DNA from: a bacterium
Lineage (GTDB): Bacteria; Patescibacteriota; Gracilibacteria; UBA1369; GCA-2718715
Direction: 5' to 3'
NCBI GenBank assembly: GCA_002718715.1
Contig: PBFJ01000014.1
Span: 12,447 to 76,446 of the forward strand
DNA length: 64,000 bases
Position 1 is the first letter of the stretch; every line of letters begins with the position of its first letter. The notes below the pieces were generated by a model. That model saw only the letters and a program-made list of their open reading frames with translations, had not been told where the DNA came from and did no database searches. Positions 1 to 33,499 of the stretch are shown here, piece after piece. Both the position numbers and the translations under genes were made by a program.

Positions 1-19
1 TGCAAATTTTTACTAAAAA

Positions 20-28
20 TGTTATAAT
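20..28 (+). promoter_or_regulatory. Extended -10 element (TGtTATAAT) for the 50-418 / 424-2595 unit
   Basis: tgttataat at 20-28, 21 nt before the ATG at 50. A -35 would fall at the window edge (tgcaaa, 1-6) and cannot be judged. Confidence 0.4.
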
Positions 29-49
29 TAAAGGAATTTAACCCATACA

Positions 50-418
50 ATGAAGTCTAGAGTTGAAATGCAACAGTTTTTGATTTCAGAAGTTCAGAAG
101 CAATTTGAAGCCCAAAAAATTTCGGTGGTAGAATTGGCTGAGATTTTGTATATGATTTCAAAAGCCGATGATTCGGAAGAATTTGTGCTGATTTTGGATT
201 TGTTTAAGGATAAATTTGATGTGTTTTTTGCTATCCTAGATAGCTTGAAAATTGAAGATCAAGAAACTTTTGAAGAAGTGATTACAAAAATCATTCCTTT
301 GATTATAAAAGATGATCCCCTTTTGGCATCCCAAGTTTCTAGCCGAGCTACCCAAAGCGGGGTTACAATGGAATCATTAGTAAATGAATTCCCGAACATT
401 AAAAAATATTTAAATTAA
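50..418 (+). CDS. Hypothetical small acidic helical protein (122 aa), upstream partner of the 723-aa gene
   Basis: Intact ORF whose stop lies 5 nt before the next ATG (operonic). D/E-rich, no TM or signal peptide. No family recognised by eye. Confidence 0.65.
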   Translation: MKSRVEMQQFLISEVQKQFEAQKISVVELAEILYMISKADDSEEFVLILDLFKDKFDVFFAILDSLKIEDQETFEEVITKIIPLIIKDDPLLASQVSSRATQSGVTMESLVNEFPNIKKYLN

Positions 419-423
419 TTATT

Positions 424-2595
424 ATGGTTAAAAATGCACAATTAGGATCAATGCTATCTGCAGAGCAGGAGAAAAGCTTAAAACAGCAAACAATTGGAGC
501 TGTTAAAACTGATTTAACTGATTCTCCAGAGCTTATTGGTAAAGTAGATAAAATGCTTTCGTATCTAAGCACAAAAACAAATAGAGATAAGGAATCAGTT
601 TTGAGAACCACAGATAATGAAAAGATGGAAAGAGGTATGAGAACTGTAAAGTCTAAAACATCAAGTTTAGGGGATGGTCAAGATGAATATGAAAAATTAA
701 GTGGTGCTGACTCGCCTTTTACAAATCTTGTTGGAATATTAAGTGGTTTTGCTAAAGAAAACTTTGAAGGTGATGCATCTGAAGCTGCAAAAAAAAGATT
801 GTTTAATTTTGTGGCTGCAGATATTGCAAAAGCTATTACTGAGCATATCGAAGATATCAAGAAAGACTTCAATGATAAAGTTAATGCCATAAATAATGAT
901 GATTTAAAAACTTTTCTTCAAGGTGACTTTTTAATAGGTAAAACTGAATTCGACCATAATGGTAAAACTTACAGCTTAACAAGATCGGAAGAGTTTGAAA
1001 AATTGTTTAGTAAATTTAAAATTACTGATACTGAAACTCAAGCGGTGATTGAAAAAATGGCGATTTTGTTAGATATGAAAGATGATTTCAATAGTAATAA
1101 CGGGGTTATTAGGTTTAATTCAAGTGAAATCATGACTCTTGAGGAAAGAAGAGAGAGATACATTGTGGAAGATGGAGTTTTATATGACATCAATGTTAAA
1201 AATGATTTAAGTGTAGAAAAGGCTGATGTAATAAACCTTCAAAGTGAAGAATATGCTGATTTAGTAAGTGACTTTGCTAATGGCAAATTAAGCTTGGCAT
1301 CAAATCCTAATTTAAAAGGTTTTTTAGATGATCAAGTTGATGCAATTCGACAAAGTCAAGAATTTAAAAATGTAATTAATTACAAATTTGAATCAAAGGA
1401 TAGTTATACTGTAAATAAAAATAATTTTTTAAAGAAAGTTTCTGACAGTATTAATGCGTTATCTAGTGCTACTGAAACTAAGGATAAGGCAGCTTATGCT
1501 TTGATATGTAAAAAATTTAATATAAAGCCAGATGAAAAAGAGGCAAAAGAAGAGCTTTCAAAAAAAATTCAAGATTATTATTTAAGTGTTGTGGTGCCAT
1601 ATGATGAAGAGGCTGAAACAGACGATGTGCAGGGGCACTTGGATAAATTTTTAAAAAAAGGAAATAAATTTACAACTTTTTTATTTGAAGGTTCAAAGAA
1701 AGAAGAACAAAATCACTTAATAAGTTATTTAGAAGCTAAGCAAAATCAGATTCGACATAAACTTGCAAAAAAGTATGCCGATTTAGATTTAAGTGAACCG
1801 AAAAATTTTAATAATTTTAGAAATGAACTGATGGATGAGATCATTGCTGCTAGAACTGAAGTTTATCAAAGAAAAGAAGAGATGATGAAAGATAATTTTG
1901 CGTTAAAATACACGAAAATGTTTTTCAAAAACAAATGGATTCAAAGAACTATGTTTGCCGGAGCAGCTTTTGCTAGTTTGCCAGCTTTAGCAAGTATTGG
2001 TGTAGCTGCCGCTACTGGTGGAGGTGTGGCTGCGGCTACTGGTATTTGGGGGGCAGCAAATTCGGCTTATGCAGCTTCTACTGGTATTATTGGAACAACT
2101 TCAGCACTTGGTTTACTTGGAACAGGAGGTGTTGCTGGTGGGATCGCTGGTGGAATACTTTCTAAACTCTCTAGTTTTGGGGCTGATAAGTATAAAAAGA
2201 ATAAATTAATCTGGGGTAAAAAAAGACCATCTGCAATGATTGGTAGCGATTTAAGAAAATCGTTAATGTCTAAGATTACTTATAATCCAAATGGAGATTT
2301 TGAAACTGTTATTGGACATGCTTTTTCGGAAACACAAGATTTACTTTCAGATGAAATGATGGAAATTAAGTATGCTAAAAGTATTCCGGGTAAAATTGTC
2401 AGTGAAAACGTTTTAATTCCTTTTATGAAAAGTAAATTTATTAAGACTATGTTGCCTACGTTTGGTTGTACAGCAATGCTGGGAGCTGGTGCGGCTGCCT
2501 TGCCAGCTGCTGTTGCACTTGGTGGAATTATGCAAGCTAAGAAAACTCTATTTGGGGGCGATGATCAAAATTCTTCTCAACCTATTCCAGTTTAA
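424..2595 (+). CDS. Hypothetical large protein (723 aa) with Gly/Ala-zipper membrane segments
   Basis: Long ORF. The K/E/D-rich N-terminal ~500 aa have no signal peptide. They are followed by FAGAAFASLPALASIGVAAATGGGVAAATGIWGAANSAYAASTGIIGTTSALGLLGTGGVAGGIAGGIL (nt ~1951-2160) and a C-terminal GCTAMLGAGAAALPAAVALGGIM. Confidence 0.85.
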   Translation: MVKNAQLGSMLSAEQEKSLKQQTIGAVKTDLTDSPELIGKVDKMLSYLSTKTNRDKESVLRTTDNEKMERGMRTVKSKTSSLGDGQDEYEKLSGADSPFTNLVGILSGFAKENFEGDASEAAKKRLFNFVAADIAKAITEHIEDIKKDFNDKVNAINNDDLKTFLQGDFLIGKTEFDHNGKTYSLTRSEEFEKLFSKFKITDTETQAVIEKMAILLDMKDDFNSNNGVIRFNSSEIMTLEERRERYIVEDGVLYDINVKNDLSVEKADVINLQSEEYADLVSDFANGKLSLASNPNLKGFLDDQVDAIRQSQEFKNVINYKFESKDSYTVNKNNFLKKVSDSINALSSATETKDKAAYALICKKFNIKPDEKEAKEELSKKIQDYYLSVVVPYDEEAETDDVQGHLDKFLKKGNKFTTFLFEGSKKEEQNHLISYLEAKQNQIRHKLAKKYADLDLSEPKNFNNFRNELMDEIIAARTEVYQRKEEMMKDNFALKYTKMFFKNKWIQRTMFAGAAFASLPALASIGVAAATGGGVAAATGIWGAANSAYAASTGIIGTTSALGLLGTGGVAGGIAGGILSKLSSFGADKYKKNKLIWGKKRPSAMIGSDLRKSLMSKITYNPNGDFETVIGHAFSETQDLLSDEMMEIKYAKSIPGKIVSENVLIPFMKSKFIKTMLPTFGCTAMLGAGAAALPAAVALGGIMQAKKTLFGGDDQNSSQPIPV

Positions 2596-2652
2596 AAAAA
2601 TTATTTTTTTAAGCTATAATAAATATAACTATAATAATTTAACCTTTAATAT

Positions 2653-3024
2653 ATGAATCAAGAAAATACAAATTTAACTCCTTTATTGAAAGAAATTTAT
2701 CAAAATCTATTTCAAGAATTAGGTGTAGATGAAATGGGTGAGGATGTAAAAGATAAAGTAACAGATACCCTTGAAAAACTTGCAATGAGTAAGTTTAAAC
2801 TAGTGATTTTGGAACTTTTTGCAGATAAACCAGAAGTAATCCAAGCTTTAACAGAAGTTTCAGATATGAAAGCTTTAGAGGAACTTTCAAGTCAATATGA
2901 TTTTAATCCTCAAGCTTTAATGAATGCTTGCTTTAATGAAGCTAAGTTGGAACTTGCAAAAGACATTGCTTTTATTCAAGGTAGCTTGTCGGCTCTTAAA
3001 AAAGAAGTTGGAGCTGATGAATAA
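2653..3024 (+). CDS. Hypothetical small acidic helical protein (123 aa)
   Basis: Intact ORF with TATAAT hexamers at 2615-2620 and 2630-2635 upstream and a strong terminator downstream. No TM or signal peptide. No family recognised. Confidence 0.6.
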   Translation: MNQENTNLTPLLKEIYQNLFQELGVDEMGEDVKDKVTDTLEKLAMSKFKLVILELFADKPEVIQALTEVSDMKALEELSSQYDFNPQALMNACFNEAKLELAKDIAFIQGSLSALKKEVGADE

Positions 3025-3055
3025 ATAAGTTCTTATATTTACTAAGATATATCTT

Positions 3056-3086
3056 AAAAGCCAAGACATAAAGTCTTGGCTTTTTT
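3056..3086. terminator. Bidirectional rho-independent terminator between convergent genes
   Basis: aaaagccaagac-ataaa-gtcttggctttttt: 8-bp GC-containing stem (3060-3067 / 3073-3080) flanked by an A-run and a T-run. Confidence 0.8.
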
Positions 3087-3137
3087 AGTTTATAATTACC
3101 ACTTTACCCGCAGTACTTAGACCAGCTTTGATACGGC

Positions 3138-6100
3138 TTAATCTTCTGATTTTACAATGGAGTATAAAGTTCCTCCTCCTTCTTTATTTTCGGTGATTTT
3201 ATAGCCATCTGGAAGATTGTCTTCAGCAGGTGCTCCTGTTAAATTAGTTAATTTCGTCTTATCATCTAAAATAGCTCCGCTTAAATTAGCTCCTGCTAAA
3301 TTGGCTCCGTAAAATTTGGCTCCTGTTAAATCTACTCCTTTTAAATCGGCTCCTTTTAAATCTGCTCCTTCTAAATTTAAGTTTGGACCTATTATGGTGT
3401 AATAAAATATTCCGTTAATTCTTCGCCTCCCCCCCCAGTAGACTTCTGGAACGTTTTTGGGTCTACCTATAAAATTTACTAGTCTTGTATGTTCTAACTT
3501 AGTGTTAGTTAGATCAACACCTTCTAAGTTGGCTCCTGTTAAATCTACTCCTTTTAAATCGGCTCCTTCTAAAATGGCTCCTTCTAACTTGGCTCCTTCT
3601 AAAATGGCTCCTTCTAACTTGGCTCCGCTTAAATTGGCTCCGCTTAAATTAGCTCTGTATAACCTGGCTCTTTCTAAAATGGCTCCTTCTAACTTGGCTT
3701 CGCTTAAATCCGCTCTGTGTAACCTGGCTCTTTCTAAAATGGCTCCTTTTAAGATGGCTCCTTCTAAGTTGGCTCTGTAAAACCTGGCTCCTTCTAAATT
3801 GGCTCCGCTTAAATTGGCTCCTTTTAGGTTGCATCTTTCTAAAATGGCTCCTTCTAACTTGGCTCCGCTTAAATTGGCTCCGCTTAAATTGGATCCTTCT
3901 AAATTGACTCCTTCTAAATTGGCTCCGCTTAAATTGGCTCCTTTTAAAACAAGATACGGGCCTACTATTGTATAAAGTTTTTTACCATCTACTTCTCTTT
4001 CAATAACTTGATATCCTTCTGGAATGTTTTTGGGTGGAGCTATTAAATCTACTAGTCTTGTAAGTTCTAACTTAGTGTTACTTAGATCAACACCTTCTAA
4101 GTTGGCTCCTTCTAAATTGACTCCTTCTAAATTGGCTCCTTCTAACTTAACACCTCTTAAATCTGCTCCTGCTAAATCTGATTGTGATAGATTAGAATTT
4201 CTTAAATCAGAGTTTGTAAAATTAGCTTCTCTCAATAAATTTTTACTTAGATCTGTATGGTTTAGTAATGAGTTTGAAAAATCAGTATCTTTTAAAGACA
4301 AATAGCTCATAACTAAATTTCTCAGATCTAAATTAGTTAAATTTTTACCTTGGAATGCACTTACATTAACTTCACCAATTAATTTGATATTTTCAGTTAA
4401 TTGATTAGGTTTTTTCTTTGATATTATTGGAAGTAGTGGTTTTTTAAAAGATTGAAGCTTTTCTATAATTTCACCTGATCTATCGTCATCTTGGGATTCA
4501 TTTGATTTAGTTTCTAAATCGATCCAGATTTCTTGAGCTGCAGAGTATAAATCATATAAATCACTTTGATTTTCTTGAGATGGAGATTCATTAAGTGAAT
4601 TTGGAGGTGAATCCTGCTGCTGGATTTGTCTTTCTATTTCAACAGATTCTGAATTTTCCTTTGGTATTTGATCTGTATTTACTTCTTGTGATTGAGGTTC
4701 TGGTGGTACAGATGCTGGTTGAAGATTTACATTTTCTTGATTTAAATCTAATGGAATATCTTGGATTTGAGATGGCTGAGGTTGCTCAATAACTTCTTCA
4801 CCTGATCCTTCTGGAACGCTTTCTGCTTGTGAATCTGTTTCTAGCACTTGAGGTTCTACATATGTTGAAGGAGTTTGGGTTTCTTTTGTTGTATTTAAAT
4901 TTTGATTTTGATCTATATCTAAGGGTTGATCTTGTGTTTGTTGATCTTGAGATTCAGTTAATTGAATATTAAAAGTTCCATCTTTATTCGATTGAATTTC
5001 GTAACCTTCTGGTAGCTTATCTTTATCAGGAACTCCTGTTAAATTAGTTAATTTCGTCTTATCATCTAAAATAGCTCCGCTTAAATTAGCTCCTGCTAAA
5101 TTGGCTCCGTAAAATTTGGCTCCTTTTAAATCTACTCCTTTTAAATCGGCTCCTTTTAAATCTGCTCCGGTTAAAATTAACTTTGGGCCTACTATTGTAT
5201 AAAGTTTTTTACCATCTACTTCTCTTTCAATAACTTGATATCCTTCTGGAAGGGTCTCTTTAATTGGTACTCCTGTTAAATCTACTAAGGTGGCAAAGTC
5301 TAAATACGCTCCGCTTAAATCGGCTCCTCTTAAATCGGCTCCTCTTAAAATAGCAAATAATAACGTCGATCCTCTTAAATTAGCTCCTTGCAATTTGGCT
5401 CCTTTCAAATTGGCTCCTGATAAATCCGCTCCTGATAAATCCGATCCTGACAAATCCGATCCTTCTAAATTGGTTTGGAATAAACGTACTCCTGGGCCTA
5501 TTATCGCATACAATGTCTTCTCTTTCTTCTCTTTTTTCTTGTATTCAATAACTTGATACCCTCTTGGAAGCTTTTCTTTATTTGGCGCTCCTTCTAAATC
5601 AAATAAACTAGCACGCTCTAACTTGGCTCCTTCTAATTTCGCTCCGCTTAAATCCGCTCCTTCTAAGTTCGCTCCTTCCATTTCTACATTTTGTAAGATT
5701 GCTCCTCTTAAATCGGCTCCTGATAAATCGGCATCTTTTAAATTGGCTCCATGAAATATGGCTCCTTGCAATTTGGCTTCTTGCAATTTGGCTCTGCTTA
5801 AATTGGCTCCATAAAATATGGCTCCTTGCAATTTGGCTTTTTGCAATTTGGCTCTGCTTAAATCTAAATTTGGGCCTACTATTGTATAAAGAGTCTTACC
5901 ATCTTCTGTTCTTTCAATAACTTGATATCCTTTTGGGATGTATTCCGGTATATATTCTGAATCTACAAATCTTTGTAATGGAGCTTTACTTGTTTTTAGA
6001 TTTTCTTCATTACTTATGGTTTCTATCTCAGTATTATTTTTAGATGTTTGAGCTTCATTAATAAGTTCTGGATCTTGTATTTCTGAAGCGTTTTCTGGGG

Positions 6101-9100
6101 TATTTACTTGATCTGGAGCCTCTTGTGTTTGTTGATCTTGAGATTCAGTTAATTGAATATTAAAAGTTCCATTACTATTTTCGTGAACTTTGTAACCATC
6201 TGGTAGTTTATCTTCTTCTGGAACTCCTATTAAGTTAACAAGTTTAGAATTTGTTAACTTGGCTCTTGTTAAATTGGCATTTGTTAAATCAGCTCCGGAC
6301 AAGTTAGCATTTGTTAAATCTGCTTCTTCTAACTTTGCTCCTGTTAAATTAGTATTTCTTAAATCAGCTCCTTCTAAATTAGCATTTGTTAAATCTGCTC
6401 CTTCTAATTTGGTATAGCTAAGAATTGCGTAGCTTAGATCTGAATTGCTAAAATTTGCATTTGTTAAATCCTGCTTTCTAAGATGTGCTCTCCTTAGATT
6501 TGCTTTTTCTGTAGCAGTTTTTTTAAATATATCTTTAATTTCATCATCTCTTAAGATCGGGGAAATATCGATATGATTATCATTATTGGATTCTAATGAT
6601 TCTGAAATCTCCAATGTTAGATTGGCTCCTTCTAGATTGGCTCCTTCTAAATTAGCATTTGTTAAATCTGCTCCTGCTAAATTAGCATTTCTTAAATCAG
6701 CTCCTGCTAAATTGGCACTTCTTAAATCAGCTCCCGCTAAATTGGCATTTCTTAAATCAGCGTATAACAAGCTGGTACCCTGTAAGTTGGCTCCTTTTAA
6801 ACTGGCATTTCTTAAATCAGCGTATAACAAGTTGGCTCCTCCTAAGTTTGCTTCCTCTAACTTAGCGAATATCAGATTACTTCTGGATAAGTTTGCTTGT
6901 CTTAAATCAGAATTTTCAAATTCTGCATAATATAAATCACATGAAGATACATTTGCCCCAATTAAAGATGTGTTTTTAAATTCGCAATTAGATAAGATTG
7001 AGCCTTCAAAATTGATATAATCTAAACCTAATTTATTGAATTCAACTGATTCTGCCTTGATATTTTCACAGTTTAAAGCTTTTCCTACAACTAAATAAAG
7101 TGATTGATGACCATCCGTACCTTCATTAATAGTAATTAAGGTATTGGGAGAGAGATCTAAATTAAGGCGTGGATCTGCATAAAAATAATTTCTAGAGCCA
7201 GTTAGGTTAAGACCTGGACCAATTAAAGTCTTATCAACACGGAAAAATCCATTTGGAATAGTACATCTATTATCAAACTCAGCGTTTGAAATTTTAGATC
7301 CAATAAAGTTTGAATTAGAAAGATTGCATTCTTCAAAAATTGCATTTTGAAAATCTATTGGTGAATTTTGAATTGCTATATTTCCTTTGAATGTAGGGTT
7401 ATCCTTAAATAAAATATCACTAGAGTTTATAATACTGGCATTTTCTACTGTTTTTAAAGATGGAAAATTAATATTGCTAGAGTTTATAATACTGGCATTT
7501 TCTACTGTTTCTAAATATGGAAAATTAATATTTGTTTTAGAGTTTTCAATATTTAATTTTTTCAAACTTTTAAGATTTTCTAAATCAAGAGTACAGCTTA
7601 AAGTAGCTTTTAAAATAAATGAATTTAAATGTTCATCTTTAAAAATTATAGTACCTTTAAAATCCCTGAAGGCTTCCTTGTTTTTAGCTACACTTGCGTA
7701 TGAAATATGAATATTTGAATATTTATTTATATTTTCATAATCAATAACTTCTGATTCAGCATCTATAATTGTATCATTTTGAGGTTCATCTTCTTCAAAT
7801 TGTAAGTTTCTTTCACCTAGAAGGGTAAAACTGTTTGGAAGGTCAATATTGAATTTATCTTTTAATAGTTTATGCGTAAGAAAATCTATATTAGTTGGTT
7901 CTGAGAATAATTTAAATAATTCGTTGACTCTTAGTAGTGCAAAATTATATTGAACTTGCTGATTTTCTTGAGTGTAGTCAATTGTACTAGAGATGATTTT
8001 ATGAAAATTAATATATTCTCGAAGAGTGATTGGATATTTGTGATACTTAATATATGAAATAATTAAAGGGTCTTCAAATATACTTTTACACACGTTGGTG
8101 TGAATTTGATCCTTAGAGAGTTGATTTATAGTTCCTAAATTAGGATGTTTTTGCAATAAGAAAAGTTGGTTTGTAAGAGAAAAATTTAAACCTTGTACAT
8201 TAAGAGTTCTTATAGATTTTGGAAGAGTATTCAGCAAATAGCTTGAAAGTAATTTTAGTTGTTCTTCAGACAAAGAGCTAGCCTCTAATTCTAAATCTTG
8301 AATATTTGTAAATTCTAGATTGAAAAAATTGCTTAAATTATCCTCTGTAAGGCTTAATTTTACCTGTCTTTCTTCGATTTTGTGTTTTGTATCAAGTTTA
8401 TGTAAAACACTTTGTAAATTAATTCCCATTATATTACTTCTGGTAAAAGATGTAGTATGATCCCCAACTACATTTATCTTTTCAAGTTTGGGGTTGTTGT
8501 AAAATATTAAGGCTGCTTGCGCATCAATTTCTTGGTCTGGTTTAATATTTAAGACCGAGTTTTTTATGCCTTTAATATTTGAAATGTCATCATTATGGAC
8601 TTCTAAAATCAAGTTGTCGAAAATCTGATGATTACGAAGGGGTAAATGCTTTAAAAAATGAGTTGAAATATTGTGAGGTAAAATTTCAGTCTTGTTAGGA
8701 TCTTTAATTTTATAACAAGAATGAAAGTGATAACGTAAATCAGGAATATTAAAAAATTGATCTACTAAATCTGCATTTGATTCGAAAACTTTAATCAATG
8801 TATTGAAATCATCGAAAGTTTGAAAGTATTCCATGAAGATATGGTTTGCTTCATAAGAAAAACCCGCGTATTTTTTACCATCTTTTTTATACTTTATGTT
8901 TACCTTTTCGGTAGGTCCAATGTATTTATGAGACGTAGTATTAAAAAAATCGAGCGGTTCAAATTCTTTTGGATGATTTACGTGAAGGTCGATTTCAGGA
9001 TAATTTTTAAGATATCCATGTAAGTATGACAAATCAATATTCACTAATTGGGGGATACCCTTTTTAAAGGTAATGTGCTTAGATCCATAAATTTTAGATT

Positions 9101-10859
9101 TAAATTCTAGTAGATTATTAGAACCTTTATCCGTAAATACTTTAAGTTGTGGGTGGGCTTTACAAATTTTATAAATATCTAAAGGATCAATATTTAGAAC
9201 TTTTATTTTTTCTCCTTTGACATTAATAGCAGATTCAAATTCTATTTCATTTCCGTCCTTATCCTTAAGATTATTTTTAAGTTCAATTGTTTGAATTTGA
9301 AAGTTATTTAGTTCTTTTGATAAATCTAAGATTTCTTTAAAAGTGATATCTTGATCGATAACTAATTTTTGAATTTTAATGCTTGCAAAAATATCTTTAT
9401 TGCTTACTTTTTTATAGTCGGAATACTTAACTTCATTAAATTTAATGTTTTCAAATTCATTCACTGTATAACCTGCTGCTATATCTTCTAAAAAAAGAAG
9501 ATCTTTATTGGATTTAGATTTAGATTTGGATTCTAGGATATCAAAAATATGTTGGGAAATTTTTATCGATTCTCCTGTAAGTTTGATTGAATTAACCTTT
9601 TTTAATTGATCGGATTGAATTTTATTTAATTGGTCGGTACTACAGGTCAAAGTTTCAACTCCAGGAAAGCCTGAAGGGAGATTTTCAAAACCACTTATAT
9701 TTAAATCTATTAATTTATCCTTTAGTCTACTAATAATTGAGTCCGGGAGTTTATGATGAATGTTATCAAGAATATTTAAAGCTTCTTGCTGATCTATTGT
9801 ATCCAAATCGATGGCTTTTTGAAATTCAGAATCTTTTGTAGTTTCTTGAGACCGAAATAAGGATAAAATCTTAAGTTTATCTTGGATTGAAAAATCAGTA
9901 TTTTCAAAATCTAATTTACCTTCATCTATTATAATTTCTTGAGTACCATTTTTAAATTGTGTAACTCCATTTGGAATCAAAGACTCTAGAATTTGCAAAG
10001 TGCTTGGGTTTTCGATTTCAAAATTTAGTTTTAAAACTTGCTGTACAGCCTTAGATAAAAATTTTTCAAAATTGAATAAGTTTAGTTCAATCTTAACTGG
10101 ATTATAAGTTTTGGGTGCTTTGTTCATGGATCTAGGTAAAATGTAGAATTTGTCTTCTTTTTTTGCGCAAACCACATCACCTGAATTTAAGTATTGCTTA
10201 TATAAAAATTCTGGAACTTCGGCGTAAAGTGAATGTGTTTTTAAATATTCAACATCTCCAGTAAGTAAAAAATAGTCATTAACACTAATCTCACCTTCTT
10301 TTGATTCAAGAGAAGTTGATACAAGTTTTTTTAATTTTTCGTGATTTAGTTTTTCAGCATACTGAGTTTTAATCTGTTCAAGTGTTTTTTGATCTGGTTT
10401 GGATTTTAATACTGAGCAGATTAATTGATTAAAATTTACATTAAATTTATTTGCAAAATCCTGTAATTCAGGGAGTTGAATTTCTCCATTCTTTAGTAAT
10501 ATATTTAAGAGTTCAAGTTTAAGTTCTGAAATATCTGTTAAAGATGTATCTTCGCTTGAAAGTTTGGAAATTAAAAGCTGGAGTCTTTTACGAATTTCAG
10601 CTTGCTGGGCGATTTCACTTTTAAAAACTTTTGGATCAACCTTAAAAAGTGCCTCTAACATATCTTCAGCTACGTGTAGAAAAAGTCCGGATTCTAACGT
10701 ATCTTCGGTATCAATATTGATGGCATTGTCTAAAATTTCACTTATCTTGTCCTCTTCAGGTGATTTAACTAATTTGGTGTCTAAGAGATTTAGATCTAAT
10801 TTTGGTTCTGGGTTTTCTGTATTTTCTGGCGGTAGATTGTTCTGATTTGTTATGTTCAT
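3138..10859 (-). CDS. Giant pentapeptide-repeat protein (2573 aa) with an LRR-like N-terminal half
   Basis: Uninterrupted 7,722-nt ORF. The C-terminal ~1,350 aa are dominated by A(D/N)LxG pentapeptide repeats (e.g. [43 protein letters not shown]) in about eight blocks. These blocks are separated by 8 copies of a conserved linker (LPxGYxV..DGKxLYTIVGP). The N-terminal ~1,150-1,200 aa are non-repetitive with LRR-like stretches. No signal peptide or TM was seen. Confidence 0.95.
   Translation of the reverse strand: [2573 protein letters not shown]
3233..3368 (-). repeat. Intragenic repeat A, copy 1 (partner 5033-5168)
   Basis: 136 nt aligned by eye to 5033-5168 with a single mismatch (3325 vs 5125). 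Encodes the ...[9 protein letters not shown].P / [15 protein letters not shown]... segment. Confidence 0.9.
3429..3436 (-). repeat. G8 homopolymer on the coding strand of the giant gene
   Basis: Plus strand cctccccccccag, which is tgg ggg ggg agg on the minus strand (..YWGGRRR..). One of only two 8-nt G/C runs I found in the window. Confidence 0.9.
3958..4024 (-). repeat. Intragenic repeat B, copy 1 (partner 5175-5241; diverged third copy ~5873-5935)
   Basis: Identical 67-nt string gggcctactattgtataaagttttttaccatctacttctctttcaataacttgatatccttctggaa, encoding [22 protein letters not shown]. Confidence 0.9.
4930..4981 (-). repeat. Intragenic repeat C, copy 1 (partner 6121-6172)
   Basis: Identical 52-nt string tcttgtgtttgttgatcttgagattcagttaattgaatattaaaagttccat, encoding [16 protein letters not shown]. 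Confidence 0.9.
5033..5168 (-). repeat. Intragenic repeat A, copy 2 (partner 3233-3368)
   Basis: See copy 1; 135/136 identity read directly. Confidence 0.9.
5175..5241 (-). repeat. Intragenic repeat B, copy 2
   Basis: Identical to 3958-4024. Confidence 0.9.
6121..6172 (-). repeat. Intragenic repeat C, copy 2
   Basis: Identical to 4930-4981. Confidence 0.9.
7420..7533 (-). repeat. 2 x 57-nt tandem duplication inside the giant gene
   Basis: ctagagtttataatactggcattttctactgttt.. starts at 7420 and again at 7477. Encodes [17 protein letters not shown] / [17 protein letters not shown] (LRR-like). Confidence 0.85.
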
Positions 10860-10889
10860 GGGACTTTAGGTTAAATTTGAGGTTTTAAT

Positions 10890-11261
10890 TTAAATATTTT
10901 TAATTAATTGATTGATTTGAGCTTGGAGCTCTAAAGGTTCTTGAGCTTTGGCTTGGTTATCTAGGATCTTTTCGACCTCTTTGCTTAGTTTTGGATCATT
11001 GCGTTCTTGCAGAGTATGAGAAAGATCTTCTAAGAAGTCGATGTTCTTAGTCATTTTATCTTTGAAGGCAAATTCAATCAAGACAGGATACTTAGTACAA
11101 AGTTGATTTATCTCTTGCTTAAGAGCTTTTAGATCACGTGCAGAGCCAAGTTCAAAAAGAATTGCAGTAAGAGTAATTTGATCCAAAAAATTTTGGTTAT
11201 AATCCTCTTTCAATTTTAGTAAAAGATTTTGGGCGTAAACAATGGCTTTTTCAGCTAGCAT
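10890..11261 (-). CDS. Hypothetical small acidic helical protein (123 aa), upstream partner of the giant gene
   Basis: Intact ORF whose stop lies 30 nt upstream of the 2573-aa ORF on the same strand. No TM or signal peptide. No family recognised. Confidence 0.65.
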   Translation of the reverse strand: MLAEKAIVYAQNLLLKLKEDYNQNFLDQITLTAILFELGSARDLKALKQEINQLCTKYPVLIEFAFKDKMTKNIDFLEDLSHTLQERNDPKLSKEVEKILDNQAKAQEPLELQAQINQLIKNI

Positions 11262-11360
11262 TAAATCAATTTAATTATCATTTATTATAGCAGAAATTGC
11301 TTTTTTAAGCAAGGTTTTTGTTGTTATTTACTTACTTTCTTGTATGATTTATTATGTATT

Positions 11361-11388
11361 TTACAGTATTGATTAAATGTGATATAAT
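11361..11388 (+). promoter_or_regulatory. Sigma70-like promoter with extended -10 for the 793-aa gene
   Basis: TTACAG (11361-11366), 16-nt spacer, TGaTATAAT (11380-11388); 24 nt upstream of the ATG at 11413. Confidence 0.5.
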
Positions 11389-11412
11389 TAACAGATTAAA
11401 ATAATTTAAAAC

Positions 11413-13794
11413 ATGGTTAAATTCAAAAGTAATTTAGAGAGAAATAAATTCAATCCACATCAGTATATTAAGTTTATAAAAGAACCTAATAATCGAAGAT
11501 TCCATGACTTAGATTGTCTGTTGTGGTCAAAACTTTTTAATACAGATAAAAGGTTAAATGAAATTGTAAAAGATCTAGTAGTAGACTACTCTTACAATGA
11601 AAACGATGAAGCAAATAGAGTATTGATTTATAGATCTGATCCAAGTGGAGAATATCAAGATATAAGAATCTTTATTAGTAAAATGATTAGCGACAAATTT
11701 AAAATTCTTGAAAGTCATAATTTAAATGAATTTCAAATTTTTGAAATTTTTAAAGCGTCTAAGTTTAAATATTTAACATCAATTTCTAAATTTATTAGAG
11801 ACCCTGAAGCGAAAAAATATGCAGAAACTCAAGCTGAAATTGCAAACATCAAGGAACCTAGTTTAAGTGGAGATGACCATCCTGTTTTAGTTAATAATGA
11901 CCCAAGTTTAAGTGGAGACGACAATCCTGCTTACAACCCAGATTTAGAACCTAGACTGACTGACAAAACACCTATTCACGAAAGAAGTACAGTAGAAACT
12001 CCTAAAAATGTAGTTGCAGATGTAGAACTAACAAGAAGATTTGTGCTTAAGGGACTATTAGCTGCCGCTGTCGCCGGCTCAACAATAAAAATTTTAGAGC
12101 CCACTGATGAACTGGTATCAGATTCTAATACTATTCCCGGTTTTGATTCAGTACCTAGCCCGGTAACTCCCCCCCCTGCTGACCATCAAATAAATCATGA
12201 GCCTTTACCTGGTCCAATTAATCCTTCAGAAGAACCTGAAGCAAATGAAAATGCTCTCGAGACTCTGAGTAGAAATCAACTAATAGAGAAGTTAAAAGAG
12301 GTAACTGAAAGTTACAAAGATGCAACTAAGAAGGCTTCTACTTTTATGCTGACCGAAAGCCCAGAAAATGAATTTTTTATAAAAGCCATAGATTTAATAA
12401 GTAAAATCAACCTAAGTGCAGAAGAATTCCTAGAATTAAAGCTAATTGAAAGTTGTAATCTTGTGAAATTTAAATCTGATAAAACTAGAATTGATAATCT
12501 TGCAGGTAAAGCGATGGTCCAAAGTGATAAGTGGTTGATAAAACTTCTTCAAAGAGCTTATGATACTAGAAGAGAAAGAGAAGAAAGAGCTAATGATTTT
12601 GGTGATGGAAACTTTTACAATGCAATTACTTCAGTATGTTCTGAATTAGAAAACGAAGTACATACTGGCACTAAAGATACAGTGGATTTATTTCCAGAAA
12701 TTAAGGATGTTCTTTTTGATCCAAACGTTATTGAATCAATCTTGATGATAGAAGGTGGTTTTAGAGCTGATGATTTAATGAATTCTACAGCAGTTTTAGC
12801 AATCACAAGGTCTTTGATAAATAGCGGTGAATTTAATCCAAATTTTGGTTCTGCAGATGTATATAGTGGTAAACATAGAATGAAAATTGCTCTTAATCAC
12901 ATTCTAACAAGTGTATTTATTCAAAAAGGAAAATTTAACAATAAACATGTTAAAAGATATTTTGATGATCTAGGTATCTTAGAATCTTTTAAAGATAGCA
13001 ATGATAACACTGAAAGAACTTGGACATCTTATCGATTAAAAAAATGTAGCCCTTTCTCTTCTTATAAGCTACGTAACAATCCAGCAAGACATGCTCCTAC
13101 AGAAACTAAAATAGCTGAAATTTTAATTGATCCACAAGCTTCAGTTAAATTAGCGTTAATGTCCTACAGAGAAAATTTACATTATTGTAGATCAGCCCTA
13201 GTAAATAACATTGATAACCTAAGAGAATTTGCAAATCCTCAAGCTGTGTCTAACTTTTGGTTAAAAATTGTAGCTTCTACTAATATTTGTGGAGGACCTA
13301 GAGTAGGAAAATTTTTAAGAGAGTTAGCTAAATACCCTGGATTTATATCAGATGATGAATTTGAAAATTTAAATTTAGAACAAGAACGACAGACTCTTCA
13401 AAAATTTGCAAAACTTATCAAGTTCTCAGAACTAAAAAGTAAAAGACAAATTAGGGCGATGTCTAGATCTGAAAGAAATGATTACTACAATTCTATAAAA
13501 GCTGAATTTCAAAATACCGAAAAATACCCGAAGAAAAAAACTGAAGAAGAACTAAATGAAATGAGTTTAGAAGATCTACAAAAACATATTGCAAATTATA
13601 ATAAAGCTTTAAAAAATTGGTATGAAACTATCTTGAATCAAAAAAGACGTAATAAGTTAATATATCATCCTGAATACTCTGAAAAGGTAGATAATATAAT
13701 GAGTACAATTAACTTAACTCCTCATATTGAAACTCAATTAGACCTAAGTAAAGCTCAAGCCTTAAGCAATCCACTGAACACTGATAATCTTTAA
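11413..13794 (+). CDS. Hypothetical membrane-anchored large protein (793 aa) with an internal Tat-like signal-anchor
   Basis: Long ORF. aa 207-228 read TRRFVLKGLLAAAVAGSTIKIL (nt ~12031-12096). Duplicated motif EPSLSGDDHP / DPSLSGDDNP at aa ~148-172. The ~560-aa C-terminal domain has no recognised family. Confidence 0.85.
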   Translation: MVKFKSNLERNKFNPHQYIKFIKEPNNRRFHDLDCLLWSKLFNTDKRLNEIVKDLVVDYSYNENDEANRVLIYRSDPSGEYQDIRIFISKMISDKFKILESHNLNEFQIFEIFKASKFKYLTSISKFIRDPEAKKYAETQAEIANIKEPSLSGDDHPVLVNNDPSLSGDDNPAYNPDLEPRLTDKTPIHERSTVETPKNVVADVELTRRFVLKGLLAAAVAGSTIKILEPTDELVSDSNTIPGFDSVPSPVTPPPADHQINHEPLPGPINPSEEPEANENALETLSRNQLIEKLKEVTESYKDATKKASTFMLTESPENEFFIKAIDLISKINLSAEEFLELKLIESCNLVKFKSDKTRIDNLAGKAMVQSDKWLIKLLQRAYDTRREREERANDFGDGNFYNAITSVCSELENEVHTGTKDTVDLFPEIKDVLFDPNVIESILMIEGGFRADDLMNSTAVLAITRSLINSGEFNPNFGSADVYSGKHRMKIALNHILTSVFIQKGKFNNKHVKRYFDDLGILESFKDSNDNTERTWTSYRLKKCSPFSSYKLRNNPARHAPTETKIAEILIDPQASVKLALMSYRENLHYCRSALVNNIDNLREFANPQAVSNFWLKIVASTNICGGPRVGKFLRELAKYPGFISDDEFENLNLEQERQTLQKFAKLIKFSELKSKRQIRAMSRSERNDYYNSIKAEFQNTEKYPKKKTEEELNEMSLEDLQKHIANYNKALKNWYETILNQKRRNKLIYHPEYSEKVDNIMSTINLTPHIETQLDLSKAQALSNPLNTDNL
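12169..12176 (+). repeat. C8 homopolymer in the coding sequence of the 793-aa gene
   Basis: act ccc ccc cct (..VTPPPA..), just downstream of the membrane anchor. Confidence 0.9.
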
Positions 13795-23404: not shown

Positions 23405-24187
23405 CTAAAGAAGGATTTCGTAGAAACCTTTGAAGCTCTCATGGATGTCTTTATGGTATGAAAAACAATAGATTTTTTGATTGTCCATAATAACTAAACT
23501 CACAAAAAAAGGTTTAGATGGATTGTTAATATAAAAAGACTCTTGGAATTGATTGTTTTTATTAATTTGGATTCCTTCATATGATTTTGTAACAGCTTGT
23601 AAAAGAGTATAAAAATAATCAGCTTTTTGAGAGTCTTCAAAAGTAATTTCTGTACCTTTGGCCATTAAACTATTTTGCTTAGTGTACTTATAATTTTTGA
23701 ATGACTGAAAATCCTCTTTTGATAAATCGATCGTGTCAAAAATCAAGGTTTGATTTTCATCTAAAGAAATTTCTAAGTCTTGAATATCGATAGAGGCAAA
23801 ATATTTTATAAGTTTAGACTCAACTTCTTGTGTTTTTGAAAGTGAAACTTCTTCTTGTGATGAGTCTTCTTGATCTGAACTTTTTAAAAAGTCTTTAAAA
23901 AATTCGGTGTTAAAACTTACCTCTTGGGATTCCTGGTTTAAATTTAAAGATTCTGAATCCTGGGAGATTTGAGAATCATTATTTTTTTGCTCTAAAGCTT
24001 GCTCTTGGAAATCTTGAACTTGAGAGCCTTGAGGCTCTGAAGTTTTAGAGTTTGAGGTTTGAAAGAAAGCTGAATTGGCTTGCAGTTGATTAGCTGGAGC
24101 CGATGGAGCTGTATTGAACTGGCTTTCTAGCAAAATTGTGATTGAAAAGAAGGCAAATATTGCCAAGAAAATTGTACTTTTGTGCAT
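23405..24187 (-). CDS. Hypothetical secreted Q/S/E-rich protein (260 aa)
   Basis: Signal-like N-terminus MHKSTIFLAIFAFFSITILLES. A low-complexity acidic region is followed by a ~130-aa globular C-terminus. Confidence 0.7.
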   Translation of the reverse strand: MHKSTIFLAIFAFFSITILLESQFNTAPSAPANQLQANSAFFQTSNSKTSEPQGSQVQDFQEQALEQKNNDSQISQDSESLNLNQESQEVSFNTEFFKDFLKSSDQEDSSQEEVSLSKTQEVESKLIKYFASIDIQDLEISLDENQTLIFDTIDLSKEDFQSFKNYKYTKQNSLMAKGTEITFEDSQKADYFYTLLQAVTKSYEGIQINKNNQFQESFYINNPSKPFFVSLVIMDNQKIYCFSYHKDIHESFKGFYEILL

Positions 24188-25331: not shown

Positions 25332-26255
25332 ATGAAATTTTTAAAGAAATTAGTAATTTTAGTTGGTGTTTTATTAATGGGTTTGAATCTAGCTTTTGCC
25401 GAGGAAGTTAATGAAATTCCTGCAAGACCTTTTTTACCAATTAATAACGAAGCTTTTGAGGAAGATTTTGTGAATATTTCAGATACCGAAAAGGAAGATT
25501 TCTTTGGTAAGTCTAGTATTTTACTAAAAGATGTAACTTTTATTATTCAACTATTAATTGGAGCCTTAGCTAGTATACTGACCATATCTTCTGTTTTATC
25601 TATGCTTACTGCTGGTATGGATAGTGAGGAAGGCATGACGAAATTAAAAGATACTATATTATATATAGTAATGGGTATTGGTCTTGTTTTCTTAGCTGGA
25701 GAAATTGGATCTTTATTAAGTCTGCAAAAAGGTGGGGTTATTGGATCTAAAACGGATGTGCTAAAAAGAGTTCAAATTTTTGATCAAAATGTAGAAGTGT
25801 TGATTGCTCTGATAAGATATACTTTAGCCGGACTTGCCGTTTTATTTATAACAATTTCAGGAGTTAAAATGGTAGCTGGGGCTGGAAGCGAAGAAGATGC
25901 AGCTAAAGAAAAATCTTACATTACTTATGCAGCAATGGGTTTGATATTATTTTTAATCTTCGACAATATATTAGGTAACATAATATATAGTATAGGTTCG
26001 CCTTTTACGGATCCGACTATTTCACCAAGCGGAGCTAAGATGGAGCTAATTGGATTTACTAATTTGGTAGTTTCCTTTGTAGGACCGGTTGCAATACTTT
26101 CAACTGTAATTGGTGGAGTTATGTATGCCTCAAGCGGATTTGATGAAGAACAAGCTGCGAAAGCCAAAAGAATGATTGGAGTTTCTTTAGCTGGAATTAT
26201 CTTAATCTATGCGGCTTATAGTATTATTGCAACTGTAGTTGCTGGACAATTTTAA
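25332..26255 (+). CDS. Secreted membrane protein made of three tandem VirB2/TrbC-like 'T4SS pilin' hairpin units (307 aa)
   Basis: Signal peptide MKFLKKLVILVGVLLMGLNLAFA. Then three copies of [TM - (A/S)G..(S/D)EE...K.K - TM]: LTAGMDSEEGMTKLKD, VAGAGSEEDAAKEKS, ASSGFDEEQAAKAKR. Confidence 0.75.
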   Translation: MKFLKKLVILVGVLLMGLNLAFAEEVNEIPARPFLPINNEAFEEDFVNISDTEKEDFFGKSSILLKDVTFIIQLLIGALASILTISSVLSMLTAGMDSEEGMTKLKDTILYIVMGIGLVFLAGEIGSLLSLQKGGVIGSKTDVLKRVQIFDQNVEVLIALIRYTLAGLAVLFITISGVKMVAGAGSEEDAAKEKSYITYAAMGLILFLIFDNILGNIIYSIGSPFTDPTISPSGAKMELIGFTNLVVSFVGPVAILSTVIGGVMYASSGFDEEQAAKAKRMIGVSLAGIILIYAAYSIIATVVAGQF

Positions 26256-26264
26256 CCTTTAAAT

Positions 26265-27248
26265 ATGCTTTCTTTTATAAAAAAATTTTTAATCTCACTT
26301 GGACTAATTAGTACCCTACTTTTTACAAACCTAGCTTTTGCTGAAACTCCTGATTCAAGTAACCCTCAAGGTTTCTTAAAAGATAGATTAGACTTAATTT
26401 TCGAAAAGTATTCAGCAGAAACTGGATTACTTCCTGTGTCTGATACCTCGTCGAAATTTGTTCTTGAAGAAAGAGGTTACTTTAATATAACATCTGTAGT
26501 TTATGCAATTATTGGTCTTATGAAATATGTAGCTTATGCCATAATGTCTATTACTATTGTGATTTCGATTGTTAAATTAATAACCGCTGGAAGCGAAGGG
26601 GCTGAAGAAGTTTGGGGGAATATGAAAAAGTACTTACTGCAAATTTTAATTGCAGTGGGGGTTATATTAACCGCTGAGTTTATTTTTAATAAAGTAATAA
26701 TGCCATCAGCTGTAAGTTCGATCGCAGGAGCCAAAGAGGCTGCCGGGCAAATTGGTGGAGAACTAGCTGGAATTGTTGGAATCATTCAAGGTTTAATTGT
26801 GATATTCTCAATCTGTATGCTAATTTTTGCTGGGAGTAAAATGGTTGCAAATATGGGAGATGAAGAAGCTATGAGTAAAGCTAAAAATCAAATTTTCTGG
26901 GGAGCTGGTGGTCTACTTGTAGTAATGTTGGGTGGAACTTTAGTTAATGAAATAATTTTTGTAAATGCCGAGTCGGTAGACCCAATAGCTGGATCTAGAT
27001 TGATTGTAAATATTACTAATTTTATTTCAGGAATAATTGGAACTATAAGTTTAATGGCATTCTTTTATGCCGGCGGCCAATACATTGTGGGTGGATTTAC
27101 AGAAGTCAACCAGGACTCAATTAAAAATGCGATATTTGGTGGAATAATTGGACTTGTGATAGCTCTTGGAGCATTTGCGATTGTTAACACTGTAATTGAC
27201 TTAGATAATCCAAGTGTACAGGTTTTTGATCAACAGCCAGAGTTTTAG
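26265..27248 (+). CDS. Second triple pilin-hairpin protein (327 aa), paralogue of 25332-26255
   Basis: Signal peptide ..LLFTNLAFA. Units ITAGSEGAEEVWGNMKK, VANMGDEEAMSKAKNQ and VGGFTEVNQDSIKNA, each flanked by TM helices. Ends with ..AFAIVNTVIDLD. Confidence 0.75.
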   Translation: MLSFIKKFLISLGLISTLLFTNLAFAETPDSSNPQGFLKDRLDLIFEKYSAETGLLPVSDTSSKFVLEERGYFNITSVVYAIIGLMKYVAYAIMSITIVISIVKLITAGSEGAEEVWGNMKKYLLQILIAVGVILTAEFIFNKVIMPSAVSSIAGAKEAAGQIGGELAGIVGIIQGLIVIFSICMLIFAGSKMVANMGDEEAMSKAKNQIFWGAGGLLVVMLGGTLVNEIIFVNAESVDPIAGSRLIVNITNFISGIIGTISLMAFFYAGGQYIVGGFTEVNQDSIKNAIFGGIIGLVIALGAFAIVNTVIDLDNPSVQVFDQQPEF

Positions 27249-27274
27249 TTTTTCAATCACAATATAATTTTTAT

Positions 27275-27302
27275 AACTAAGTTTTAGGACTTAGTTTTTT
27301 TT
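27275..27302 (+). terminator. Rho-independent terminator after the two pilin-like genes
   Basis: aactaagt-tttagg-acttagtt followed by T8. Confidence 0.65.
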
Positions 27303-27438
27303 ATTGAAAAAACTTTGTGCAAGATTTTTCAAAACCATGTATAATATACTTGTTAAAATTGTGCATTTCTGTGGTTTTTTGTTGTCAAAAAGCCCAAAAT
27401 TTGATACAATATAGGGAATAATAATTAATTAATTTTAA

Positions 27439-33447: not shown

Positions 33448-33467
33448 TTTTTAATCAAAGTTTATTT

Positions 33468-33476: not shown

Positions 33477-33499
33477 TTGTTTGTAATAATTTTTACTTT

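Follow-up and report, generated by a model that had tools for sequence, protein, structure and literature searches.

An uncultured marine bacterium encodes a giant pentapeptide-repeat protein with predicted hairpin connectors in a hypervariable island

A 64-kb stretch of contig PBFJ01000014.1 (positions 12,447 to 76,446 of the forward strand) carries one very large gene on its minus strand. The whole stretch is called the window here, and nucleotide coordinates refer to it unless another locus is named. We find that the gene, at 3138..10859, is a genuine single gene encoding a mosaic, non-enzymatic protein of 2,573 amino acids (aa), referred to below as the giant. Its C-terminal part holds serial blocks of pentapeptide repeats bounded by a conserved connector of ~40 aa that is predicted to form a β-hairpin, its first 150 aa form a module that stays constant between strains, and comparison with related strains places it in a hypervariable island. 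The reading we favour, tentatively and with slightly less than even confidence, is that of a hypervariable, non-enzymatic interaction protein in which a constant N-terminal handling module bears exchangeable, rigid tail modules. We are highly confident of its structural and evolutionary description, but have little confidence in what we propose on localisation and the partner protein.

The gene is one uninterrupted open reading frame (ORF) of 2,573 codons plus a stop codon. It begins with ATG, and no earlier start is possible because a stop codon in the same frame comes two codons before it; an initial annotation made from the sequence alone had described a single 7,722-nt ORF of this length, and that description is borne out. 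The guanine-plus-cytosine (GC) content of the window is ~30%, and the protein clusters that hold proteins of the window have members from Tara Oceans samples, including the 0.22-0.45 μm size fraction. The source is an uncultured, low-GC, marine bacterium. The highest Kyte-Doolittle mean over 19 residues in the giant is 1.14, with no window resembling a transmembrane segment; hydropathy analysis gives no N-terminal hydrophobic signal, and Pfam and NCBIfam scans return no catalytic family. The initial annotation had likewise seen no signal peptide, transmembrane helix or catalytic motif, and these analyses agree with it. Neither Rfam nor tRNA scans found anything in the window, which therefore offers no taxonomic marker.

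That so repetitive an ORF might be an assembly artefact, arising by collapse, expansion or chimerism of repeats, is extremely unlikely in our judgement. Many short-read contigs do break within the gene, at aa ~1090 (1087-1093), ~1820 and ~1914; the ends at aa 1087-1093 directly precede a 57-nt tandem repeat, and the others fall inside pentapeptide runs. One ANLEG unit also separates two full-length versions: besides the version in the NCBI record, a 2,578-aa version is found on Tara scaffolds at ENA and JGI, and the extra unit, at aa 1401 (window ~6657), is the sole difference between them. Against this, full copies and fragments from at least five independent assemblies match the ORF at 100% identity across their overlaps, and N- or C-terminal fragments on contigs of further samples and assemblers are also 100% identical where they overlap. 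The longest DNA-level repeats inside the gene are only 84-90% identical over 117-207 nt, and a 2,690-aa orthologue (P0002) is collinear and has the same architecture at 26% identity. Repeat collapse or expansion, which the initial annotation had raised as a concern, is thus improbable given identical independent assemblies and diverged repeats. Because the contigs break at short repeats, unit counts there may be off by one; repeat-number variation or assembly ambiguity is limited to the perfect short tandems, where copy number may be off by one unit while the architecture is sound.

The fold family of the C-terminal part is clear. Pfam Pentapeptide matches 20 stretches (E 9.5e-205), all within aa ~1170-2573; Pentapeptide_4 and Pentapeptide_3 score 286 and 233 bits, and all these matches exceed the curated cutoffs, whereas Pfam finds no family in the first ~1,150 aa. 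The giant contains runs of at least 8 contiguous A(D/N)LxX repeats, as is characteristic of the pentapeptide superfamily (PF00805 and relatives). The right-handed quadrilateral β-helix of this superfamily, with four repeats to a coil, is present in prediction, where an AlphaFold (AF2) model described below places one strand residue in every five at a mean predicted local distance difference test (pLDDT) of 90.5. Eight to nine pentapeptide segments, ~700 residues and roughly 35 coils in all, are spread over the C-terminal ~1,400 aa. The rise per pentapeptide coil is ~4.8 Å, so that the coils would measure about 17 nm if stacked. The model-based picture is of segments grouped into rigid units with acidic linkers between them, and these linkers are probably disordered.

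All features of the giant lie on the minus strand. In protein order, a short first pentapeptide run (aa ~1169-1197, found by a lenient Pfam scan) is followed by block B0 (aa 1263-1415; 6615..7073), which has ~30 repeats and carries the ANLEG length difference, and by a non-repeat linker (aa 1416-1452; 6504..6614). Block B1 (aa 1453-1538; 6246..6503) comes next, then an acidic linker (aa 1579-1628; 5976..6125) after the connector C1. B2 (aa 1669-1749; 5613..5855), B3 (aa 1796-1855; 5295..5474) and B4 (aa 1899-1934; 5058..5165), all three supported by both Pfam and AF2, form a close series, and B4 shares 90% DNA identity with the B7 region. After connector C5 a long acidic, Gln- and Pro-rich linker (aa 1976-2165; 4365..4934) leads to the last three Pfam-supported blocks: B5 (aa 2166-2266; 4062..4364), B6 with ~30 repeats (aa 2308-2457; 3489..3938) and B7 (aa 2499-2534; 3258..3365). 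Net charges of the blocks run from -8 to +2, that is, near neutral, and the two Gln/Pro-rich acidic linkers after C1 and C5 carry about -7 over 50 aa and -26 over 190 aa, respectively. Literature searches on giant pentapeptide proteins and on pentapeptide repeats in Patescibacteria found nothing relevant.

The conserved element between the blocks has the consensus L-x-(D/N)-L-x-G-x-P-x2-4-LP-x-G-Y-x-V-x-E…G…Y-T-I-V-G-P-x-L-x-L. A profile was built from its eight copies and scanned against the six-frame translation of the window. Each of the eight ~40-aa copies scores 44-68 bits against this profile, in keeping with the count given in the initial annotation, and the whole giant reaches E 5.5e-130; no other ORF of the window carries the connector. 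C1 (aa 1539-1578; 6126..6245; 47.5 bits; DNA repeat family D4) and C5 (aa 1935-1975; 4935..5057; 43.7 bits) belong to a terminating subtype, GTFNIQLTESQDQQTQ, and both are followed by the acidic linkers described above, as had been proposed at the outset. C2 (aa 1629-1668; 5856..5975; 63.4 bits) is an initiating copy with no block before it. C3 (aa 1750-1795; 5475..5612; 50.2 bits) has a KKKEKKEK insertion in the hairpin turn. C4 (LPEGYQVIEREVDGKKLYTIVGP; aa 1856-1898; 5166..5294) scores 63.0 bits and C6 (aa 2267-2307; 3939..4061), which gave the top-scoring stretch when 1.84 billion proteins were searched as described below, 67.6 bits. C7 (aa 2458-2498; 3366..3488; 57.1 bits) has a divergent first strand, PEVYWGGRRR, and C8 (aa 2535-2573; 3141..3257; 51.3 bits) is a terminal copy that ends the protein (…TLYSIVKSED). 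Two further degenerate copies lie at aa ~1200-1222 (IPNGFFRVDKTLIGPGLNL) and ~1240-1260, and an iterated profile recovers a ninth copy. The claim that some eight blocks each end in the connector thus holds in part: the blocks are serial and bounded by a conserved element, but B0 ends in a non-conserved linker and C2 has no block before it.

To what fold does the connector correspond? We modelled aa 1690-1976, which comprise three successive block-connector pairs, the last connector being of the terminating subtype, from a four-row alignment of paralogous and orthologous segments (mean pLDDT 90.5; predicted template modelling score, pTM, 0.82). In the blocks, single-residue strands recur every 5 residues, as in pentapeptide coils. 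Each connector is predicted to contain a brief helical turn at P-x-K-E and then an antiparallel pair of strands, each 5-7 residues long (…GYQVIER / KLYTIVG…), after which the chain returns to pentapeptide coils at G-P. The strand pairs appear in all three modelled connectors (model residues 80-86/92-98 in C3, 186-192/195-201 in C4 and 264-268/274-278 in C5), where 10-residue pLDDT means are about 76-95. Two checks suggested in the initial annotation thereby gave positive answers, hmmscan confirming the pentapeptide repeats and the model of a block-connector-block unit placing a hairpin between coils.

When the model was compared with the PDB by Foldseek, the top 45 listed matches were all structures of pentapeptide-repeat proteins or solenoids designed from this fold; these include the designed solenoids, HetL, Np275/276, MfpA, Qnr, AlbG and NleL, with E down to 1e-10. 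Template modelling scores (TM-scores) to straight pentapeptide helices are just 0.2-0.3, and with such low values a straight continuous rod cannot be claimed. Against viral models, Foldseek gave only generic pentapeptide proteins, with a best TM-score of 0.40. The connector itself has no match in Pfam or NCBIfam; its profile finds nothing below E 0.3 among all PDB sequences, and alignments of PDB sequences to the giant cover the blocks but not the connectors.

The placement of the hairpins suggests what they do. Some have a block on either side (C3, C4, C6, C7), some lead into a block that nothing precedes (C2 and, in the proteins P0012 and P0033, the first copy), and others close a block that nothing follows (C1, C5, C8). 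Because the same element occupies all three positions, we infer from the model that the connector is an end-cap that is also usable as a joint, closing one end of a β-helix and priming the next. Among the 13 single-domain solved pentapeptide proteins covered by a 2021 review, capping is by α-helices, and the only insertions mentioned are the short loops of QnrB1 (PMC8145042). On our reading, the hairpins of the giant would take the place of those helical caps.

The connector is not special to the giant. A HMMER search with a 13-sequence connector profile against 1.84 billion representative proteins (E≤1e-3) gave 36 matches, which fall into two classes. Class A consists of ~12 clusters of pentapeptide proteins with near-full connectors, in 2-18 copies per protein. 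It includes further alleles or fragments of the giant's own family (P0009, P0029) and clearly unrelated proteins (P0013, P0015, P0035, P0014, P0021, P0022, P0028, P0041), in which the pentapeptide runs between hairpins span just 15-60 aa. P0013 (810 aa) has 12 copies, P0015 (919 aa; lipoprotein-like N-terminus) 6 and P0035 (1,244 aa; signal-peptide-like N-terminus) 18. The analysis gathered ~70 connector copies altogether. At least two connectors flanked by pentapeptide repeats occur in the giant (8-9), P0002, P0009, P0012-15, P0021, P0022, P0028, P0033, P0035 and P0041; we group these as hairpin-jointed pentapeptide proteins, a grouping defined here rather than a curated family. Pfam labels the connector-bearing metagenome proteins only as Pentapeptide. 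Class B is made up of unrelated surface proteins of 2,000-6,400 aa, such as P0008 (3,678 aa; Big_9/He_PIG/cadherin repeats), which have no pentapeptide repeats and match only the first half of the connector (the LPEGWEFTDNEDGTGTF strand pair, profile columns ~5-28); this is most likely a convergent short strand-turn motif. The connector had been described at the outset as unrecognised. It is indeed without a match in Pfam, NCBIfam or PDB sequences, but it recurs in ~12 other clusters: though absent from curated resources, it turns up repeatedly as an accessory within one subclass of pentapeptide proteins. A word-indexed search with the connector profile yielded 14 candidates, none of which scored; it missed the query itself, which the database contains, so it is unreliable and is given no weight.

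Two of these proteins bear on modularity. P0012 (635 aa) and P0033 (900 aa) resemble the giant's lineage in composition and connectors, and each has a single hairpin-block-hairpin unit, including a GTFNIQL-type end, with a coiled-coil-like N-terminus on one side of it and an unrelated C-terminal domain on the other; the N- and C-termini differ from those of the giant. Since the unit stands among unrelated termini, the hairpin-pentapeptide-hairpin unit acts as a portable module. P0012 adjoins genes for PriA, a tRNA synthetase and CTP synthase.

Other relatives come from more distant settings. P0013 lies on a 473-kb contig (L007) beside genes for TFIIS, Rpb6, Rpb9 and an E2 ubiquitin-conjugating enzyme, and P0035 adjoins a mitochondrial-carrier gene; both proteins are probably from giant viruses or eukaryotes. 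On L007, three pentapeptide genes are adjacent (2822-9493), encoding proteins of 741 aa (with Laminin_G_3), 810 aa (P0013) and 682 aa, in surroundings that resemble the genome of a giant virus or a small eukaryote. In P0015 and P0035, two Cys residues of the connector co-occur 21 times against 2 singletons, a pattern that would fit a disulfide in exported proteins. Partner domains among connector-bearing relatives include F5/8 type C, which is found in P0022, and Laminin_G_3, and both fit an extracellular setting for those relatives.

Comparison between strains revealed where the gene varies. The main comparison genome was the metagenome-assembled genome SI074_bin149 (locus L004), and loci L001 and L005 were also used. 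Ten housekeeping proteins of the backbone, encoded beside the giant gene, are 94-98% identical to those of SI074_bin149. The giant itself is 51% identical over its first 274 aa (60%, 88% and 56% in successive 50-aa stretches) and about 20% identical thereafter; identity between strains is 25-28% for the 723-aa protein encoded next to it and 35-50% for the 793-aa one. By these sequence comparisons the gene sits in a hypervariable island (window 1-13794) of an otherwise near-identical backbone. Within the island, a small acidic 122-aa protein (86-98%) and the 123-aa acidic protein upstream of the giant (89-92%) are conserved, and a third small acidic protein (123 aa, 2653-3024) is 64-70% identical.

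Synteny is the same in all recovered loci: a small 123-aa protein, the giant, a terminator-like hairpin and a convergent three-gene unit. In the window, the gene for the 123-aa acidic protein (10890..11261, minus strand) lies 30 nt upstream of the giant, on the same strand and with no terminator-like site in the gap; it is directly upstream of the giant in every orthologous locus, at 89-92% identity, and has no family match. The terminator-like hairpin, flanked by an A-run and a T-run, lies between the convergent genes at 3056..3084, and the three-gene unit (50..3024, plus strand) encodes the 122-aa acidic, 723-aa and 123-aa acidic proteins.

Alleles of the giant differ in their tails. The SI074 allele has 1,794 aa, no pentapeptide repeats and no Pfam match. 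In P0009, a fragment of another allele, a part that matches the end of the SI074 allele at 78% identity runs on into a linker and four hairpin/pentapeptide units, and the 2,690-aa allele P0002 has 6-7 connectors. Since the tail is absent in the SI074 allele and present in P0009 and P0002, these sequences indicate that the pentapeptide/hairpin tail is a module that can be left out or resized, in a family whose defining feature is the constant N-terminus. That family appears to be rare: N-terminal motif scans, which rest on two 8-residue patterns, found one extra locus each in 185,579 species genomes and in JGI metagenomes. A word-indexed search with the whole protein recovered just the giant itself and one orthologue.

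The constant N-terminal module (aa 1-150; 10410..10859) is acidic and, at low confidence, predicted to be helical. Against three orthologues, its successive 50-aa stretches are 60-62%, 88-90% and 52-56% identical, with about 20% identity beyond. It has no family match in Pfam scans, including a lenient one, and its profile finds nothing below E 0.19 among PDB sequences. The fast-evolving middle region (aa 151-1090; 7590..10409), of mixed α/β character and without a family match, is about 10-38% identical to its orthologues. An AF2 model of aa 1-1200 from a two-sequence alignment has a pLDDT of 41.8, falling below 50 over most of the middle region, and gives secondary-structure hints alone: helix at aa 1-225, alternating strand and helix at aa 770-905 and β structure at aa 1098-1190. 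Foldseek finds nothing for this model at E≤1e-3. A word-indexed search with the N-terminal 1,166 aa produced 8,000 candidates, none scored, and missed its own query; it too is unreliable and carries no weight.

Between the middle region and block B0 lies a stretch (aa 1091-1262; 7074..7589) that holds 19-aa repeats, the short pentapeptide run and the two degenerate connectors. The N-terminal ~1,150-1,200 aa had been called unique sequence with stretches resembling leucine-rich repeats (LRRs). The absence of any family match agrees with the first part of that description, but the second finds no support in family models: no LRR family model matches at E≤0.1 in the giant, at E≤0.01 in two orthologues or at E≤5 in aa 954-1200, and on this ground LRR membership was rejected. 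The stretch in question is a tandem 19-aa (57-nt) unit, NINFPxLxTVENASIINSS, in ~2 copies (57-nt repeat at 7413-7532), and orthologues have many copies of a 19-20-aa unit, (F/L)PxLxxxxxIxIxNxxxLN. In the AF2 model, whose confidence is low, each unit has roughly two strands, an orthologue's repeat array weakly matches the CAP/CARP β-helix in the PDB (E 5e-4), and the Foldseek matches for the repeat region are of NLRP/LRR type and all non-significant. In these predictions, the repeats look more like a β-solenoid with two strands per turn.

Family scans add little to the rest of the island. PADLOC, PHROGs and NCBIfam searches of the island proteins return nothing except NCBIfam matches to the giant that are driven by its pentapeptide repeats, and when five neighbours and two parts of the giant were scanned leniently with Pfam, pentapeptide repeats alone were gained. 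The three small acidic proteins have no detectable mutual kinship (hhalign probability below 3%). The 723-aa orphan (424-2595, plus strand), which lies between two of them and has no family match, contains Gly/Ala-rich hydrophobic segments at ~aa 510-560 and 680-705 that recall glycine-zipper regions inserted into membranes. The fast-evolving 793-aa protein (11413..13794, plus strand) is divergently transcribed and part of the same variable island; this orphan has an internal twin-arginine-like motif and hydrophobic stretch, TRRFVLKGLLAAAVAGS, at aa ~205-228, with a proline-rich segment after it. To judge from its sequence, this protein looks as if it crosses the membrane once, its cytoplasmic head being conserved and its outer part variable.

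Further along the window, at 25332-35641 (plus strand), two tandem VirB2-like T4SS_pilin genes (307 and 327 aa) are followed by genes for a 2,002-aa protein, which is T4SS_pilin-like at its N-terminus and has PKD domains, and for a 713-aa PKD protein. VirB2-like pilin arrays are reported to be common in Patescibacteria type IV systems that have no relaxase (preprint, bioRxiv 10.1101/2025.01.22.634366), and we take the array as a hint about lifestyle, not as a classification. A 1,467-aa ORF (53515-57918, minus strand) has no Pfam family, and the same holds for about half of the ~30 ORFs of the window that were scanned (for example 23405-24187, 37777-39150, 39193-40251, 42348-43310 and 50895-52442). 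So many family-less ORFs suggest a very divergent lineage.

How might such a protein work? Under the favoured reading, the variable part would be an exchangeable rigid surface for binding or spacing, and would serve an arms-race type of interaction with a partner cell, a host or a virus. The handling part, concerned with export, docking or stabilisation, would be made up of the constant module at the N-terminus and the invariant 123-aa protein encoded upstream, the latter being a candidate partner or chaperone of the module. Export, if it occurs, would be Sec-independent, because the giant has no signal peptide. The hypervariable island and the constant N-terminal module lend an interaction role indirect support, and because the gene lies in a fast-evolving island, the giant probably mediates contact with other cells or viruses. 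An effector of a host-associated bacterium, a role considered in the initial annotation, would be conjectural, and no secretion-system gene was identified close to the gene.

Several points weigh against this reading. Hydropathy and family scans show no signal peptide, transmembrane segment or recognisable secretion or trafficking domain in the giant, and no gene for a secretion-system ATPase or channel was found among the ~30 scanned ORFs; the giant could simply be cytoplasmic. Partnership between the 123-aa protein and the N-terminal module is proposed only from adjacency and shared conservation, and the AF2 model of the N-terminal 1,200 aa is, at its pLDDT, unusable. The low TM-scores could reflect a kink, an offset or a mere shift in alignment register, and the model does not tell a joint from a loop that protrudes from a continuous helix. 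The giant's own hairpins have no Cys pair, and the extracellular context of the relatives need not transfer to it.

The main rival is a cytoplasmic conflict or defence protein: a sensor, decoy or scaffold of an anti-phage or other intracellular conflict island that is never exported. We consider it unlikely, though a good deal less so than the other rival functions below. It agrees with the absence of a signal peptide or transmembrane segment, defence loci, too, typically form islands that vary from one near-identical strain to the next, and NCBIfam gives a very weak match for the Hailong effector HalA, at 32 bits where the cutoff is 250. PADLOC is nonetheless empty for all six island proteins, and Pfam and NCBIfam find no nucleoside triphosphatase, nuclease or other effector domain; the hydrophobic, membrane-type segments of two variable neighbours point to the envelope, and connector-bearing relatives elsewhere have secretion signals and adhesion-type domains.

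The fold class and the database matches also raise two more specific functions, both of which we regard as very improbable. One is a DNA-mimicking protein of the Qnr/MfpA/AlbG type that binds topoisomerases or other DNA-binding proteins. Structures and NCBIfam models of Qnr and MfpA do align to the repeat blocks, but Qnr reaches 191.5 bits against a cutoff of 240 and MfpA 197.2 against 360, with all Qnr subfamily models far below cutoff, and the giant is more than 10 times the size of the ~180-220-aa members. In the model, its helix ends are closed by hairpins and not by a C-terminal dimerising helix (PMC8145042); its blocks are near neutral and not strongly anionic, as judged by sequence charge rather than surface electrostatics; and the whole tail is dispensable in close alleles. 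The other is a homologue of the type III pentapeptide effectors PipB/PipB2 and SopA/NleL, delivered into a eukaryotic host. The NCBIfam model of PipB reaches 292 bits and so nominally passes its cutoff (274), PipB2 (285.6 bits) and a HECT effector model (98.8 bits) match as well, and NleL is among the Foldseek fold matches. These scores, however, are sums over 7-10 separate stretches of generic repeats, the cutoffs for PipB2 (354) and the HECT model (500) are missed, Pfam and NCBIfam detect no HECT or other catalytic domain, and the N-terminal regions resemble no family. We identified no type III gene in the 64-kb window, and its ~30 scanned ORFs have no secretion components except VirB2-like pilin domains. 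Equivalog status for HetL, Alr5209 or PipB was likewise rejected, as the scores that exceed the cutoffs are summed over many stretches and the giant is 10-20 times longer.

A bolder extension of the interaction reading, which we think rather doubtful, would join most of these threads. The ~40-aa hairpin would be an unnamed domain that defines a cross-kingdom pentapeptide subclass of modular extracellular or secreted binding rods, grafted here onto a hypervariable, Sec-independently exported family whose 150-aa head would be recognised by the invariant 123-aa protein as a dedicated chaperone or adaptor. The giant would then represent a new substrate class, possibly for a relaxase-less type IV system to which the pilin array would belong.

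Pentapeptide-repeat proteins number in the tens of thousands, of which a handful have known functions. All solved examples known to us are short, and the single-domain ones among them are capped by helices. The fold and the repeat family of the giant are thus already familiar; what is new is the conserved hairpin cap or joint, the extreme size and modular layout, and the setting in a hypervariable island with a constant N-terminal module, and no paradigm is changed. A conserved hairpin that caps or joins helix segments, in proteins that seem to come from bacteria as well as from giant viruses or eukaryotes, would give the family a further structural rule; the connector would supply annotators with a new profile and solenoid protein design with a natural joint. 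The gene flags a hypervariable island in a marine bacterium that is very small and uncultured, and if it is true that the N-terminal module and its small partner form a device for export or docking, the island would show how such a cell interacts with hosts or viruses.

Among known systems, the He_PIG, Big_9 and cadherin-like immunoglobulin repeats share only the first half of the connector (LP-x-G-W/Y-x-F/V-x-D/E-N-x-D-G-T), in the strand pair noted above, and those proteins, unlike the giant, are without pentapeptide repeats. SopA/NleL, PipB2 and the repeat region of DotG/IcmE resemble the giant in using pentapeptide-type repeats as one module of a larger, secretion-linked protein. The giant has no HECT domain, no shared N-terminus and no secretion context, and its matches to these proteins, weak to moderate in NCBIfam, are to generic repeats alone; the NCBIfam DotG model reaches 54 bits against a cutoff of 750. 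The logic of polymorphic effector or toxin loci is closer in some respects: a constant N-terminus is joined to a C-terminus that varies and is exchanged among close strains, and where those loci have small cognate proteins, the giant locus has small, highly conserved acidic proteins. Pfam, NCBIfam, PADLOC and PHROGs find no trafficking domain, toxin domain, immunity gene or secretion gene there, so that the resemblance would be one of logic only.

The best sequence and fold matches for every block are the single-domain pentapeptide proteins of solved structure (MfpA, Qnr, AlbG, HetL, Np275/276, Rfr and At2g44920), which share the A(D/N)LxX repeats and the predicted helix. Those proteins are ~100-260 aa long, with one unbroken helix and α-helical caps (PMC8145042), whereas the giant has 8-9 segments in 2,573 aa, and its segments end in a conserved β-hairpin that no PDB sequence matches. 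Loops A and B of QnrB1 (8 and 12 residues) are, like the connector, non-pentapeptide insertions in the helix (PMC8145042); they are short, have no family-wide motif and do not lie at helix ends, whereas the connector is ~40 aa long, has its own consensus, serves also as a terminal end piece and reaches up to 18 copies per protein in relatives. The hairpin proteins from metagenomes differ from the giant in being shorter, with blocks of 15-60 aa, and none has its N-terminal 1,100 aa; some are equipped with secretion signals, with two Cys residues in their connectors or with F5/8 type C and Laminin_G_3 domains, and some are seemingly of giant-virus or eukaryotic origin. What they share with it is the consensus …G-x-P-x-x-LP-x-G-Y/W…Y-x-I-I/V-G-P-G-x-D-L, alternating with runs of pentapeptide repeats.

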